64,000 nucleotides of DNA from Escherichia coli (GTDB lineage: Bacteria; Pseudomonadota; Gammaproteobacteria; Enterobacterales; Enterobacteriaceae): the NCBI RefSeq assembly GCF_017348835.2, contig NZ_CP071375.1; one strand, 5' to 3'. Below the pieces are notes generated by a model. That model was not told the DNA's origin. It did not search any database and worked only from the letters and a program-made list of their open reading frames with translations. Positions within the stretch are counted from its first letter, which is position 1. The number at the start of each line of letters is the position of its first letter. Of the stretch, positions 428-58,600 are shown in pieces. Made by a program: the position numbers and the translations under genes.

Positions 428-988
428 ATGAACGTGAGTAAATATGTCGCTATCTTTTCCTTTGTTTTTATTCAGTTAATCAGCGTTGGTAAAGTTTTTG
501 CTAACGCAGATGAGTGGATGACAACGTTTAGAGAAAATATTGCACAAACCTGGCAACAGCCTGAACATTATGATTTATATATTCCTGCCATCACCTGGCA
601 TGCACGTTTCGCTTACGACAAAGAAAAAACCGATCGCTATAACGAGCGACCGTGGGGTGGCGGTTTTGGCCTGTCGCGTTGGGATGAAAAAGGAAACTGG
701 CATGGCCTGTATGCCATGGCATTTAAGGACTCGTGGAACAAATGGGAACCGATTGCCGGATACGGATGGGAAAGTACCTGGCGACCGCTGGCGGATGAAA
801 ATTTTCATTTAGGTCTGGGATTCACCGCTGGCGTAACGGCACGCGATAACTGGAATTACATCCCTCTCCCGGTTCTACTGCCATTGGCCTCCGTGGGTTA
901 TGGTCCAGTGACTTTTCAGATGACCTACATTCCGGGTACCTACAACAATGGCAATGTGTACTTTGCCTGGATGCGCTTTCAGTTTTGA
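428..988 (+). CDS. pagP: Lipid A palmitoyltransferase PagP (outer-membrane beta-barrel)
   Basis: ORF 404..988 translation matches PagP; start moved to the internal ATG at 428 (MNVSKYV...), giving 186 aa with an N-terminal signal peptide. Confidence 0.9.
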
Positions 989-1162
989 GACAAATGAAGT
1001 TTTAGTAAATTCTTTAAAATCAATCACTAAAATAATTAACATCAAAAATAACGCGACTTTTATCACTTTTTAGTGAAGTTGCACTGGACAAAGCGTACCA
1101 CAATTGGTGTACTGGTAACCGACACAGCATTTGTGTCTATTTTTCATGTAAAGGTAATTTTG

Positions 1163-1372
1163 ATGTCTAAGATTAAAGGTAACGTTAAGTGGTTTAATGA
1201 GTCCAAAGGATTCGGTTTCATTACTCCGGAAGACGGCAGCAAAGACGTGTTCGTACACTTCTCTGCAATCCAGACTAATGGTTTTAAAACTCTTGCTGAA
1301 GGTCAGCGCGTAGAGTTCGAAATCACTAACGGTGCCAAAGGCCCTTCTGCTGCAAACGTAATCGCTCTGTAA
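1163..1372 (+). CDS. cspE: Cold-shock-domain protein CspE
   Basis: C-terminal 69 aa of ORF 1073..1372 ([20 protein letters not shown]...) is a CspA-family protein; ATG at 1163. Confidence 0.93.
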
Positions 1373-1392
1373 GATACGTCAGCAAGAATTCA

Positions 1393-1420
1393 AAACCCGC
1401 TTAATCAGCGGGTTTTTTTT
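1393..1420. terminator. Rho-independent terminator between convergent cspE and crcB
   Basis: GC stem aaacccgc/gcgggttt with loop, followed by an 8-T run on the + strand. Confidence 0.8.
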
Positions 1421-30554: not shown

Positions 30555-30717
30555 AGAAAAAAGAGGGTAGCAGCGTTAACTGCTACCCTCGAAGATTGTT
30601 ACCCAGCGTATTGCGGTTTTCAGGCCCGATGGGGAACGACCATCAGGCGTATAGTCTGTCCGTGCTACGTAACAATCGAGAGGGCTAGAATTTCCGCCCC
30701 TGGTTCTTGTAATTAGT
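30555..30717 (-). ncRNA. sroC: SroC sRNA, processed from the gltI-gltJ spacer (GcvB sponge)
   Basis: Position between gltI and gltJ with an intrinsic terminator at its 3' end; boundaries placed from remembered K-12 layout, not computed. Confidence 0.55.
30556..30592 (-). terminator. Rho-independent terminator/attenuator after gltI (3' end of sroC)
   Basis: Minus-strand hairpin gagggtagcag..ctgctaccctc followed by a U6 run (A6 on + at 30556-30561). Confidence 0.8.
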
Positions 30718-39104: not shown

Positions 39105-39179
39105 TGGCTGGGGTACGAGGATTCGAACCTCGGAATGCCGGAATCAGAATCCGGTGCCTTACCGCTTGGCGATACCCCA
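39105..39179 (-). tRNA. glnX: tRNA-Gln (anticodon CUG)
   Basis: 75 nt; reverse complement reads UGGGGUAUCGCCAAGCGG...CCAGCCA; anticodon loop read by eye. Confidence 0.9.
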
Positions 39180-39216
39180 ACTGGGTGCACTTACAAGGTA
39201 AGCGTCTTGAATAAAT

Positions 39217-39291
39217 TGGCTGGGGTACGAGGATTCGAACCTCGGAATGCCGGAATCAGAATCCGGTGCCTTACCGCTTGGCGATACCCCA
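39217..39291 (-). tRNA. glnV: tRNA-Gln (anticodon CUG)
   Basis: Identical copy of the 39105..39179 gene. Confidence 0.9.
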
Positions 39292-39339
39292 ACAAATTGG
39301 TTTTTGAATTTGCCGAACATATTCGACACATTCAGAATT

Positions 39340-39416
39340 TGGTGGCTACGACGGGATTCGAACCTGTGACCCCATCATTATGAGTGATGTGCTCTAACCA
39401 ACTGAGCTACGTAGCC
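39340..39416 (-). tRNA. metU: Elongator tRNA-Met (anticodon CAU)
   Basis: 77 nt; GGCUACGUAGCUCAGUUGG...CCACCA; anticodon CAU. Confidence 0.9.
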
Positions 39417-39431
39417 AGATTGTTTCTTCGA

Positions 39432-39506
39432 TGGCTGGGGTACCTGGATTCGAACCAGGGAATGCCGGTATCAAAAACCGGTGCCTTACCGCTTGGCGAT
39501 ACCCCA
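39432..39506 (-). tRNA. glnW: tRNA-Gln (anticodon UUG)
   Basis: 75 nt; same scaffold as glnX but anticodon loop UUUUGAU. Confidence 0.9.
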
Positions 39507-39540
39507 ATAACCGGGCGGTGAACCGCTTACTCGAAGAAGA

Positions 39541-39615
39541 TGGCTGGGGTACCTGGATTCGAACCAGGGAATGCCGGTATCAAAAACCGGTGCCTTACCG
39601 CTTGGCGATACCCCA
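39541..39615 (-). tRNA. glnU: tRNA-Gln (anticodon UUG)
   Basis: Identical copy of the 39432..39506 gene. Confidence 0.9.
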
Positions 39616-39638
39616 TCCGTACAACGCTTTCTGGTGAA

Positions 39639-39723
39639 TGGTGCGGGAGGCGAGACTTGAACTCGCACACCTTGCGGCGCCAGAACCTAAATCTGGTGCG
39701 TCTACCAATTTCGCCACTCCCGC
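39639..39723 (-). tRNA. leuW: tRNA-Leu (anticodon UAG), long variable arm
   Basis: 85 nt; GCGGGAGUGGCGAAAUUGG...CCCGCACCA. Confidence 0.9.
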
Positions 39724-39731
39724 AAAAAAGA

Positions 39732-39808
39732 TGGTGGCTACGACGGGATTCGAACCTGTGACCCCATCATTATGAGTGATGTGCTCTAACCAACTGAGCT
39801 ACGTAGCC
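39732..39808 (-). tRNA. metT: Elongator tRNA-Met (anticodon CAU)
   Basis: 77 nt; identical copy of the 39340..39416 gene; first gene of the operon. Confidence 0.9.
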
Positions 39809-42098: not shown

Positions 42099-42198
42099 TG
42101 CCGGATGCGGCGTGAACGCCTTATTCGGCCTACAAAAGCATGAAAATTCAATAAATTGCAGGAGCTGCGTAGGCCTGATAAGCGTAGCGCATCAGGCA
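42099..42198. repeat. REP/BIME cluster between asnB and umpH
   Basis: tgccggatgcggcgtgaacgccttattcggcctac and gtaggcctgataagcgtagcgcatcaggca palindromic units. Confidence 0.7.
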
Positions 42199-52832: not shown

Positions 52833-52863
52833 TAAAAAAGCCAACCCGCAGGTTGGCTTTTCT
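52833..52863. terminator. Bidirectional terminator between chiQ and fur
   Basis: aaaaaagccaacc-cgca-ggttggctttt; A-run and T-run on either side. Confidence 0.75.
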
Positions 52864-52876
52864 CGTTCAGGCTGGC

Positions 52877-53323
52877 TTATTTGCCTTCGTGCGCATGCTC
52901 ATCTTCGCGGCAATCGCCTTCGGCACAGTGACCGTAAAGATAGAGACTGTGGTTAGTCAGGCGAATGCCATGTTTTGCGGCAATTTCACGCTGACGCGCT
53001 TCGATGGAGTCATCACTAAATTCGATTACCTTGCCGCAGTCGAGGCAGATCAGGTGATCGTGGTGATGTTGCTGTGTCAGTTCAAATACGGATTTACCGC
53101 CTTCAAAATTGTGGCGGGTGACGATACCAGCATCGTCAAACTGGTTCAGTACGCGATATACCGTAGCCAGACCAATTTCTTCACCCATATCGATCAGACG
53201 TTTGTATAAATCTTCCGCACTGACGTGATGGTTGTCCGGCTCCTGAAGAACTTCCAGGATTTTTAAACGAGGAAGCGTTACTTTCAGGCCAGCTTTCTTT
53301 AGGGCGGTATTGTTATCAGTCAT
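52877..53323 (-). CDS. fur: Ferric uptake regulator
   Basis: 148 aa; HHDH...CxxC metal-site motifs. Confidence 0.97.
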   Translation of the reverse strand: MTDNNTALKKAGLKVTLPRLKILEVLQEPDNHHVSAEDLYKRLIDMGEEIGLATVYRVLNQFDDAGIVTRHNFEGGKSVFELTQQHHHDHLICLDCGKVIEFSDDSIEARQREIAAKHGIRLTNHSLYLYGHCAEGDCREDEHAHEGK

Positions 53324-53402
53324 GCGGAATCTGTCCTGTTACTAAGCGGTTCACTTCATTAGAAGAAGTGACAGAATTTGCTCTTGAGATAATGCGTATC
53401 AT
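53316..53402 (-). CDS. uof: uof, 28-codon upstream ORF translationally coupled to fur
   Basis: Translation MIRIISRANSVTSSNEVNRLVTGQIPHD; its stop overlaps the fur start; present as the C-terminal part of track ORF 53316..53552. Confidence 0.75.
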   Translation of the reverse strand: MIRIISRANSVTSSNEVNRLVTGQIPHD

Positions 53403-53406
53403 TATA
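53388..53406 (-). promoter_or_regulatory. Fur box at the fur promoter, overlapping the uof start codon
   Basis: Minus-strand tataATGATACGCATTATC matches the Fur-box consensus; the ATG is the uof start. Confidence 0.7.
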
Positions 53407-53611
53407 GAATTGCCACGCCTAAATGAAAACCACAAGTCCCTGGCAAATATTGTTAATAAAAACGTGGCACAGCTTACATTTACAACAGCAAGGCCACTTG
53501 AACACCGGGACATTGTACAGGTACAACAGCAAAAGTTACAAATTTGTAGCAATTATTTTGATTGGCATTATCTATTAATACGGCGTAGACATGAGTCTAC
53601 GCCGCATCACA

Positions 53612-54142
53612 TCAGGCATTGAGAATTTCGTCGAGATGCAACTCTTCAGAAATCTGTTTAACCCATTTTTCTACACGTTCAGCGGTCAGTTCCGGCTGAC
53701 GGTCTTCGTCGATAGCCAGACCGACAAAGTGGTCGTCATCTGCCAGACCTTTTGATGCTTCGAAATGATAGCCCGCAGTTGGCCAGTGACCAACGATGGT
53801 TGCACCGCGCGGTTCAATGATGTCGCGGATGGTGCCCAATGCGTCGCAGAAATATTCGGCGTAATCTTCCTGGTCACCACAACCAAACAGCGCAACCAGT
53901 TTGCCATTGAAATCAATCTCTTCGAGAGTCGGGAAGAAGTCATCCCAGTCACACTGCGCTTCGCCGTAATACCAGGTTGGGATGCCCAGCAGCAGAATGT
54001 CATAAGCTTCCAGATCTTCTTTGCTGCTTTTTGCAATGTCATGGACATCGGCAACGTCTTTACCAAGCTGTTTTTGAATCATTTTTGCGATATTTTCGGT
54101 ATTACCGGTGTCGCTGCCGAAAAAGATGCCAGTGATAGCCAT
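53612..54142 (-). CDS. fldA: Flavodoxin 1
   Basis: Start at the internal ATG 54142 ([16 protein letters not shown]..., 176 aa); ORF-track start at 54259 is too far upstream. Confidence 0.95.
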
Positions 54143-57919: not shown

Positions 57920-58600
57920 CAAATGCGCCTATAAGGCTCTCTTACCAGCCGCGCCCTAACAGGCGCACACGATCTGACATTTGCATCCAACTTCGTTACT
58001 TACGGCCCGTAAACGGGCTGCCCGGATAGGGAATCGATAACTGCTCTACCATTTTATCCTCTTCAAGCTGGTGCTTTATGTAATCCTGTATCTTCGCCGT
58101 GTTCTTACCCACTGTATCGACGTAGTACCCTCTGCACCAGAACTCCCTGTTCCTGTATTTGAATTTCAAATCACCAAACTGCTCGTAAAGCATCAGACTG
58201 CTTTTCCCTTCCAGATATCCCATAAAGCCGGATACGCTCATTTTGGGCGGGATCTCCACAAGCATATGGATATGATCTGCACAGCATTCAGCTTCCAGAA
58301 TCCGTACACTTTTCCACTCACACAGCTTTCTCAAAATACTGCCTATTGCTCTACGCTTCTCTCTGTAGAACACCTGTCTTCGATATTTTGGCGCAAAAAC
58401 TATGTGATATTTACAGTTCCATCGGGTGTGCGCTAAGCTCTTTTCGTTCCCCATTGGGACCCCCTTTTGATTTCTTGTTTGACACTTGCAGTTGCCAGAC
58501 CGCAAGGTGTTTTAACAAATCAAAAGGGGTTTTAATAACTGGCTCAAAGCTGAAAGCTTTCCGGAACCCCCAGCCTAGCTGGGGGTTTTCTGTGCACAAG
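57900..58600 (-). mobile_element. IS200-family insertion sequence (IS200/IS605 family), boundaries approximate
   Basis: Contains an IS200-type Y1 transposase gene; the 5' side has a perfect hairpin (58566-58588) and a long-range inverted repeat (58461-58471 / 58527-58537) around the tnpA RBS; size is about 0.7 kb. Confidence 0.6.
57996..58454 (-). CDS. tnpA: IS200-type Y1 (HUH) transposase TnpA
   Basis: 152 aa from MGNEKSLAHTRWNCKYHIVFAPKYRR...; HUH motif HIHMLV and catalytic Tyr region; closely resembles Salmonella IS200 TnpA by recall. Confidence 0.85.
   Translation of the reverse strand: MGNEKSLAHTRWNCKYHIVFAPKYRRQVFYREKRRAIGSILRKLCEWKSVRILEAECCADHIHMLVEIPPKMSVSGFMGYLEGKSSLMLYEQFGDLKFKYRNREFWCRGYYVDTVGKNTAKIQDYIKHQLEEDKMVEQLSIPYPGSPFTGRK

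Follow-up and report, generated by a model that had tools for sequence, protein, structure and literature searches.

uof, a 28-codon leader ORF within the control region of fur in Escherichia coli

The short minus-strand ORF that ends within the start of fur in the analyzed stretch of E. coli DNA (64 kb in length, hereinafter the window) belongs to the known, already catalogued uof-fur arrangement, and its rediscovery adds nothing new. Very probably, uof is a fur leader ORF of 28 codons embedded in a control region in which autoregulation by Fur, translational coupling, control by the small RNA RyhB and dependence on MiaB are layered upon one another. The identity and anatomy of the ORF, the significance of the Fur box, the overlap with the promoter and the evolutionary pattern come from the present analysis; Fur binding, the coupling and the effects of RyhB and MiaB are taken from the literature. 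The presence of uof upstream of fur was reportedly described by Vecerek, Moll and Blasi in 2007 (EMBO J 26:965).

The ORF consists of 28 sense codons (MIRIISRANSVTSSNEVNRLVTGQIPHD) that are opened by an ATG at 53402..53400 on the minus strand and followed by a TGA at 53318..53316, as read directly from the sequence and from the ORF list. The fur ATG occupies 53323..53321 on the same strand, and uof ends 5 nt into fur, in the overlap ATGACTGA. In the ORF list, the uof frame appears as a 78-aa ORF that begins with an upstream TTG (53552), the result of a mechanical call of the first start after a stop. The interval assigned to the feature by an earlier, sequence-only reading, 53316..53406, is bounded by the uof stop on one side and the first base of the Fur box on the other, and its description of a 28-codon ORF ending in the fur start region is accurate. 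Taken alone, the ORF is statistically unremarkable, with 59 ORFs of at least 20 aa overlapping the surrounding 4 kb; its significance derives from the Fur box, the position of the ORF and its identity with an annotated and experimentally studied gene.

This identity is unequivocal. The 601 bases around the site are found with 95-100% identity in 5424 of the 5426 complete E. coli genomes, where RefSeq annotates fldA, “uof: fur leader peptide” and fur, and the leader peptide annotation is present in all 40 records sampled evenly down the ranking. In K-12, the identical ORF, located between fldA and fur, is uof, with the product WP_001406816.1, and a comparison of the peptide with the NCBIfam equivalog model NF011344, “fur leader peptide”, yields 85.2 bits (cut-off, 71 bits) over the full length of the model (1-28 of 28). 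Thus, the name uof given to the ORF in the sequence-only reading agrees with both the annotation and the family model, and the overall interpretation of the locus as uof-fur is also in line with what papers citing Vecerek et al. 2007 say on coupling, RyhB and autoregulation. The uof coding sequence contains a UCA (TCA, Ser) as codon 6, the rare codons ATA and AGA as codons 2 and 7, respectively, and five codons that start with U. The UCA codon is reported to make the decoding of uof dependent on the iron-sulfur enzyme MiaB (PMC11448259); among the 36 species with an intact uof, codon 6 is UCA in 14 and CCA in 13. EcoCyc groups uof among “leader peptides”. The features of the locus are listed in Table 1.

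Table 1. Features of the fldA-uof-fur region (window coordinates)
Feature	Position	Strand	Basis
fldA (flavodoxin 1) CDS, upstream of uof-fur	53612..54142	-	sequence, ORF list, K-12 annotation
fldA terminator hairpin, 10-bp stem CGGCGTAGAC/GTCTACGCCG, loop TCAT	53581..53604	-	sequence
Upstream promoter-like site TTGTAA-18-TACAAT	53512..53541	-	consensus scan
Proximal fur promoter, -35 TTTTCA	53424..53429	-	consensus scan
Proximal fur promoter, -10 TATAAT, over the first two bases of the uof ATG	53401..53406	-	consensus scan, conservation
Fur box TATAATGATACGCATTATC, 16/19 to consensus; operator for Fur autoregulation	53388..53406	-	consensus match
Predicted RyhB pairing region	53369..53420	-	duplex prediction
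uof, 28-codon fur leader ORF	53316..53402	-	sequence, ORF list, K-12 annotation, family model
Leader hairpin UCACUUC-(7 nt)-GAAGUGA, uof codons 11-17	53351..53371	-	predicted fold
fur Shine-Dalgarno core AGGA, 10 nt before the fur ATG, in block AACAGGAC	53334..53337	-	sequence
uof/fur overlap ATGACTGA, 8 bases: fur start codon and uof stop codon	53316..53323	-	sequence
Abundant RNA 3' end at the U of the fur AUG	53322	-	K-12 710645 converted, PMC7815308
fur CDS, 148 aa and stop	52877..53323	-	sequence, ORF list, K-12 annotation

A scan of the whole window with the 19-bp Fur box consensus GATAATGATAATCATTATC, allowing up to 3 mismatches, identifies a single match, TATAATGATACGCATTATC, and none of 100 dinucleotide shuffles gives any. 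The proposal that the uof ATG lies inside a near-consensus Fur box is therefore borne out, with a 16/19 match at 53406..53388 that is unique in the 64 kb. Across genera, the box is kept as TATAATGA[GT]ACGCATTA. It overlaps the -10 hexamer of the proximal promoter TTTTCA-17-TATAAT, the best promoter-like site of the region (10/12 match, sigma-70-like, with a 17-nt spacer). In a sample of 80 fur loci, each from a different species of Enterobacterales, this promoter is conserved, and TTTTCA or a one-base variant is found 17 nt upstream of the -10 hexamer in nearly all species. Together with the Fur box, the -35/-10 pair forms the most conserved upstream block of these loci, which persists even in Erwinia, Pantoea, Dickeya and Pectobacterium. 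The uof ATG is present in 72 of the 80 species, always within TATAATG, including lineages in which the ORF stops after 4-16 codons. As the ATG always belongs to a TATAATG, the promoter and the operator, and not its use as a start codon, account for its conservation, and it lies inside the Fur box mainly because the box overlaps the conserved -10. The overlap of the ATG with the Fur box is thus no link between the operator and translation. These observations agree with the published placement of the Fur box over the -10 of Pfur-a and of the fur start sites within uof (PMC7867234). Autoregulation of fur is cited elsewhere (PMC12683245).

From the promoter consensus and secondary literature, the transcription start site is predicted at approximately 53395..53393, about 7 nt downstream of the -10 hexamer. 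Because this position is inside uof, the transcripts from the proximal promoter would lack the uof AUG. The best-conserved fur promoter hence yields mRNAs without the uof start codon, which counts against the main mechanism outlined below. Two transcripts have been described, one that originates at “Puof” and spans uof and fur, and a shorter one, of fur, that originates at Pfur within the uof ORF, and the former is detected on northern blots (PMC6191717); RNA-seq has identified three promoters for ybfE-fldA-uof-fur and defined a uof-fur transcription unit (PMC4161252). A candidate for “Puof”, which might direct transcripts carrying the whole of uof, is the promoter-like site at 53541..53512. 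The block ...ATAATTGCTACAAATTTGTAACTTTT...TGTACAAT that contains this site is kept in all 16 aligned genera regardless of the state of uof.

The RNA 3' ends mapped in K-12 by Term-seq can be placed on the window by subtracting 657,323 from the K-12 coordinate, a conversion that follows from the flanking sequences given by Adams 2021. The 3' end of the fldA terminator, K-12 710897(-), with an intrinsic-terminator score of 19.7 (Adams 2021, Supplementary file 3, PMC7815308), converts to 53574, which is exactly 172 nt upstream of the uof ATG, in agreement with the listing in that work. The second, abundant 3' end, K-12 710645(-), with scores of 137086 and 180817 (Supplementary files 1 and 3 of the same study), falls within the fur start codon; it is not Rho-dependent, scores 1.1 as an intrinsic terminator and carries the flag “uORF” (PMC7815308). 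A terminator scan finds none between uof and fur.

In the mechanism that best combines these features with the published data, iron-loaded Fur, bound to its box (53406..53388) over the -10 hexamer, would limit the transcription of fur, that is, exert autoregulation. Short fur mRNAs from the proximal promoter would start a few bases 3' of the uof AUG and allow no uof translation from that codon, and long mRNAs, originating at the upstream promoter (~53541..53512) or from fldA read-through, would carry the whole of uof. On a long mRNA, ribosomes that end at the uof UGA would promote initiation at the fur AUG, the AGGA of which, at 10 nt upstream, appears rather far; this would constitute translational coupling. 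RyhB, which would be made when Fur is inactive, is expected to form an imperfect duplex near the uof start and with codons 7-11, and such pairing would lower the translation of uof and, in turn, that of fur. The UCA at codon 6 would add a dependence of uof decoding on MiaB. According to three papers, fur translation is coupled to that of uof, and RyhB blocks uof initiation, lowering Fur (PMC7534054, PMC12683245, PMC11550727). The finding of Vecerek 2007 that mutation of the uof start abolishes fur translation is relayed by several independent papers (PMC11550727, PMC7534054, PMC12683245, PMC11448259). No usable ribosome-profiling data on the translation of uof emerge from a literature search.

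The comparative data on the coupling appear mixed. Conservation of the frame, on which the sequence-only reading had made its proposal depend, holds in all E. coli sampled but extends to only 36 of the 80 Enterobacterales species, in which the E. coli-type frame (28-30 codons, with the end at fur +5) is found; by comparison, the Fur protein itself is 90-100% identical across the 80 species. In 7 species, an ORF starts from the same ATG in another frame and ends in an ATGA overlap; in 4, the ORF is in frame with fur, with no stop between them; and in the remaining ones, either the ORF stops 18-76 nt upstream of fur or the ATG is absent. Enterobacter asburiae is the one species that has lost the TGA. 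Independent 1-nt indels have broken the frame in close relatives of species that retain it, among them Citrobacter sedlakii, Citrobacter sp. Awk4, Enterobacter sp. Bisph1, Salmonella enterica subsp. arizonae, K. oxytoca/Raoultella and Pluralibacter UBA7423; none of these species with indel-broken frames shows a change in the ribosome-binding-site block of fur, AACAGGAC...CCGCATGACTGA. Given that the frame is lost while this site stays identical, fur must be translatable without uof. The overlap ATGACTGA is present in 77 of the 80 species, including those that lack the uof frame, and is therefore fixed by something other than uof.

This pattern brings up the explanation that uof is largely an evolutionary by-product, in which case the conserved functional elements would comprise the promoter with its Fur box, the leader hairpin and the ribosome-binding site of fur, and uof translation would add little to the Fur level because most fur mRNA would come from the proximal promoter, without the uof AUG. 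Although unlikely as a whole, this explanation accounts for several observations. Both ends of the ORF are accounted for: the start is the ATG of the TATAATG that combines the -10 and the Fur box and persists even where the ORF is short, and the stop is fixed by the first codons of Fur, ATG ACT GAY, irrespective of uof. Moreover, the conserved ribosome-binding-site block leaves two of its three frames open in any case; the repeated frame losses are all due to indels in the hairpin loop; the start site of the conserved promoter is inside uof; and the species without uof possess an identical fur ribosome-binding site. Chance also goes a long way. When the variable middle of each of 65 distinct leaders is shuffled, with the Fur-box end and the ribosome-binding-site end kept, the frame opened by this ATG runs on to the fur start in about 40-55% of the leaders, that is, in an expected 25 of 65 if the leader length modulo 3 is randomized and 35 of 65 if the length is kept, compared to the 43 of 65 observed. 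Counted by genus labels, the ORF reaches the fur start in 18 of 30, against 12-14 expected. The enrichment for fur-reaching ORFs is thus modest, and the statistic ignores phylogeny.

The constraint on the peptide points in the same direction. Among 22 distinct 28-codon uofs, the pN/pS ratio amounts to 0.98 over the variable codons 6-15 and to 0.75 over codons 2-27, and the other two frames of the same DNA give 0.57-1.27, so that the uof frame is no better than these; nor are the third codon positions of uof the most variable ones. The fur genes of the same species, analyzed with the same script, give 0.027 in frame and about 4.7 out of frame, which indicates that the method works. As judged from these ratios, the uof peptide itself is not under selection, and what matters, if anything, is probably the act of translating uof rather than its product. 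A pN/pS of about 1 is, however, also what would be expected if translation of the leader mattered and the product did not. Further points speak against the by-product explanation. The frame has been held through 3-nt indels in several genera, producing in-frame uof variants of 28 and 29 codons, and the fur start is reached somewhat more often than by chance. The uof-fur transcript on northern blots and the uof-fur unit from RNA-seq also count against it, as does the experimental evidence of Vecerek 2007, relayed by several papers, on the effect of the uof start mutation and the action of RyhB on uof initiation. Judging from the comparative data, the uof layer is probably a lineage-restricted addition, found in Escherichia, most Citrobacter, Enterobacter and their relatives, superimposed on a much more conserved promoter, Fur box, leader hairpin and ribosome-binding site.

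Folding of the leader predicts a hairpin within uof, with a 7-nt loop (53364..53358). At the equivalent position, hairpins with different stems are predicted in other genera, for example, ACUUCC/GGAAGU, UUGCUCC/GGAGCGA, CGCUCA/UGAGCG and GCCC/GGGC. In per-sequence folding against shuffles, the mean z-score of the hairpin segment over 66 distinct leaders is -1.09, compared to +0.11 for a control segment. The frame-breaking 1-nt deletions of Citrobacter, Bisph1 and Salmonella map to the loop, and the hairpin looks better conserved, at the level of predicted folds, than the uof frame. Application of RNAalifold to a MAFFT alignment of 26 leaders recovers only a trivial 3-bp helix because the stems of different genera are out of register. 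Taken as a whole, the leader shows no unusual degree of structure, with z-scores of -0.5 (short form) and -1.4 (long form); the predicted folds leave the fur ribosome-binding site weakly paired, not clearly sequestered, and do not contain alternative hairpins that would exclude one another. At a permissive threshold, Rfam detects no cis-regulatory family in the leader. The same search returns only two sub-threshold sRNA matches, which lie on the opposite strand at the terminator that follows fur.

At the fur ribosome-binding site, the sequence AACAGGA is nearly invariant in the 80 species, whether uof is intact or not. The duplex of the fur site with the anti-Shine-Dalgarno sequence (AGGA at a 10-nt spacing) is predicted at -4.0 kcal/mol and that of uof, which is interrupted, at -3.6 kcal/mol, so that neither is strong; no well-placed Shine-Dalgarno sequence is found for the uof AUG, which, like the lack of clear sequestration of the fur site, counts against the main mechanism. 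These energies fail to separate uof, fur and reference ORFs.

The pairing of RyhB with the leader was analyzed using a RyhB sequence that is 100% identical in E. coli and matches Rfam RF00057 at 83 bits. RyhB nt 31-80 can form a long imperfect duplex with 53420..53369 at -24.4 kcal/mol, a value reached by 16 of 1000 shuffles, provided that the 5' arm of the RyhB terminator stem opens. In this predicted duplex, GAGCAA (53383..53378) pairs with RyhB U42-C47, which includes G44/C45; UGUC (53373..53370) pairs with RyhB 38-41; and UAAUGAUAC, over the uof AUG, pairs with RyhB 60-68. The single-stranded core of RyhB alone does no better than shuffles on the uof start region (181 of 1000). Two other searches gave nothing that could be retained: a scan of the RyhB core (nt 31-64) over 371 nt places the best site at 53491..53466, upstream of uof, where 133 of 200 shuffles are as good, so that this site was not taken as real, and a full-length RyhB-leader duplex spans an unrealistic 140 nt and is no better than shuffles (103 of 500), for which reason it was discarded. 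The need to open the RyhB terminator stem matches the account of the PETcofold authors, who note that the published RyhB-uof model overlaps this stem, that no tool they tried predicts it, and that validated pairs are unsupported in up to 3 of 9 species (PMC3018821). Of the 80 species, only 2, both belonging to Escherichia, carry the GAGCAA seed, which in Citrobacter/Enterobacter reads GTGCAA; accordingly, control by RyhB at this site looks Escherichia-specific. G44/C45 of RyhB are reported to be needed for repression, and RyhB to lower the short fur mRNA but not the uof-fur mRNA (Sinha 2018, PMC6191717), the latter result being a point against the main mechanism. The suggestion of the sequence-only reading that RyhB acts in this region agrees with the block of uof initiation relayed by several papers (PMC7534054, PMC12683245, PMC11550727), but the pairing itself is weakly supported thermodynamically.

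The hairpin, the RyhB seed and the abundant 3' end can also be put together differently, in a scenario that seems improbable. The most conserved features of the leader RNA would then be the hairpin (53371..53351) and a discrete leader RNA of ~70 nt (from the Fur-repressed proximal promoter, at about 53394, to the 3' end at 53322) that contains the RyhB seed target and might be a stable by-product or a RyhB decoy; the uof coupling would be a recent, Escherichia-centered overlay. Finally, transcription attenuation of the trpL/hisL type, in which ribosome stalling on uof would switch between a terminator and an antiterminator upstream of fur, is suggested by the short leader ORF with an internal hairpin (53371..53351), the abundant RNA 3' end near the end of the ORF (53322, PMC7815308) and the EcoCyc grouping, but is extremely improbable and was rejected, given that uof overlaps the fur start and leaves no room for a terminator between them, that the terminator scan is empty there, that the single hairpin is followed by no U-run and has no mutually exclusive alternative, that the mapped 3' end lies 28 nt beyond the hairpin with a score of 1.1 and no Rho dependence (PMC7815308), and that uof contains no run of one regulatory codon.

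For the preferred reading, a coupled leader ORF, the broader relevance lies in the role of Fur as master iron regulator and in the standing of uof as a textbook case of indirect sRNA control via an upstream ORF. The comparative caveats might be modestly useful to specialists because, judging from them, the uof layer does not seem to be shared by enterobacteria in general. Furthermore, any mutation of the uof ATG changes the -10 hexamer or a conserved position of the Fur box, so that start-codon mutants have to be interpreted with care.

Compared to uof as catalogued (EcoCyc G0-10580; NF011344), the window shows no difference: the same 28 aa are encoded at the same place, between fldA and fur, and the stop likewise lies over the fur start. 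The comparative additions are the retention of the frame in 36 of 80 species, the lack of constraint on the peptide, and the location of the start codon in the -10/Fur box of a promoter whose transcripts would skip it. Coupled overlapping genes with ATGA or TGAnnATG-type junctions are a general feature of bacterial operons, and uof shares with them a stop codon a few bases from the downstream start (ATGACTGA), with the ATGA form of the overlap in 7 other species; unlike in typical pairs of this kind, however, the uof partner has only 28 codons, its product seems unconstrained, and it is missing from the most conserved class of transcripts. A similar logic has been reported for GcvB acting on thrL and possibly ivbL, which are grouped with uof (PMC7534054): there, too, an Hfq-dependent trans-acting sRNA is reported to block the initiation of a short upstream ORF and thereby to lower the downstream gene. 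However, thrL and ivbL function by transcription attenuation, whereas uof overlaps fur, with coupling reported and no terminator between the two. With the Fur-repressed genes fepA, fecA and feoA (PMC7867234), fur has in common a 19-bp near-consensus box over the -10 hexamer; in contrast to these genes, the box of fur precedes the gene for Fur itself, in accord with autoregulation, and on the longer transcripts supplies the ATG start codon of uof.

The hairpin inside uof, the 28-codon leader ORF of fur, appears to be better conserved than the uof reading frame, because the natural 1-nt deletions that disrupt the frame map to the loop of the hairpin. Among the fur leaders compared, from 80 Enterobacterales species (L002-L081), many genera retain a hairpin at the equivalent position, with differing stem sequences. 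A Term-seq study identified a very abundant RNA 3' end at K-12 710645 that is neither Rho-dependent nor terminator-like (Adams 2021, PMC7815308, supplementary files 1 and 3). This end corresponds to window position 53322 (-), exactly the U of the fur AUG. Taken together with the predicted transcription start near 53394, it would delimit a roughly 70-nt leader RNA containing the RyhB seed target.

The ATG of the TATAATG motif, which joins the -10 hexamer of the proximal fur promoter to the uof start codon, opens other frames in some leaders. In L055, L056, L058 and L061 (Enterobacter sp. R1, Buttiauxella izardii, B. agrestis and Dryocola), this ATG is located about 66-69 nt upstream of fur and in frame with it, with no stop codon between them (e.g., MRRIHLNAHPESERIVKQQDNFR-MTDN...), so that long transcripts could encode an N-terminally extended Fur. 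In L020, L025, L028, L052, L054, L063 and L047 (Mangrovibacter, Cedecea and some others), the ORF opened by this ATG follows the third frame and ends in an ATGA overlap with fur, which is possible because ATGACTGA contains TGA in two frames. Judged by its sequence, this arrangement differs from the uof type yet is equally 'coupled-looking'.

The hairpin that follows fur appears to be a bidirectional terminator. A plus-strand 3' end at K-12 710187 (Adams 2021, PMC7815308) maps to window position 52864 (+), downstream of chiQ, the gene convergent with fur; sub-threshold Rfam matches to STnc370 and isrD on the plus strand overlap the hairpin. The matches found elsewhere in a search of the whole window at the Rfam gathering threshold are all ordinary for the E. 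coli chromosomal region that the window covers.

Features of the fur region and Rfam matches elsewhere in the window
Feature	Coordinates	Strand	Description
Promoter-like block	53512..53560	-	ATAATTGCTACAAATTTGTAACTTTT...TGTACAAT; contains TTGTAA-18-TACAAT
Leader hairpin	53351..53371	-	UCACUUC-7 nt-GAAGUGA, inside uof
Hairpin after fur	52834..52860	both	AAAGCCAACC-TGCG-GGTTGGCTTT
sroC	30555..30717	-	Rfam, gathering threshold
STnc490	58464..58587	-	Rfam, gathering threshold
cspA-type thermoregulator/mRNA	972..1420	+	Rfam, gathering threshold
Seven-tRNA-gene cluster	39108..39808	-	Rfam, gathering threshold
ES036	42134..42176	+	Rfam, gathering threshold

The upstream promoter-like block is nearly invariant across 16 genera. 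It probably corresponds in appearance to the region of the fur promoter that is activated by OxyR (Zheng et al. 1999).
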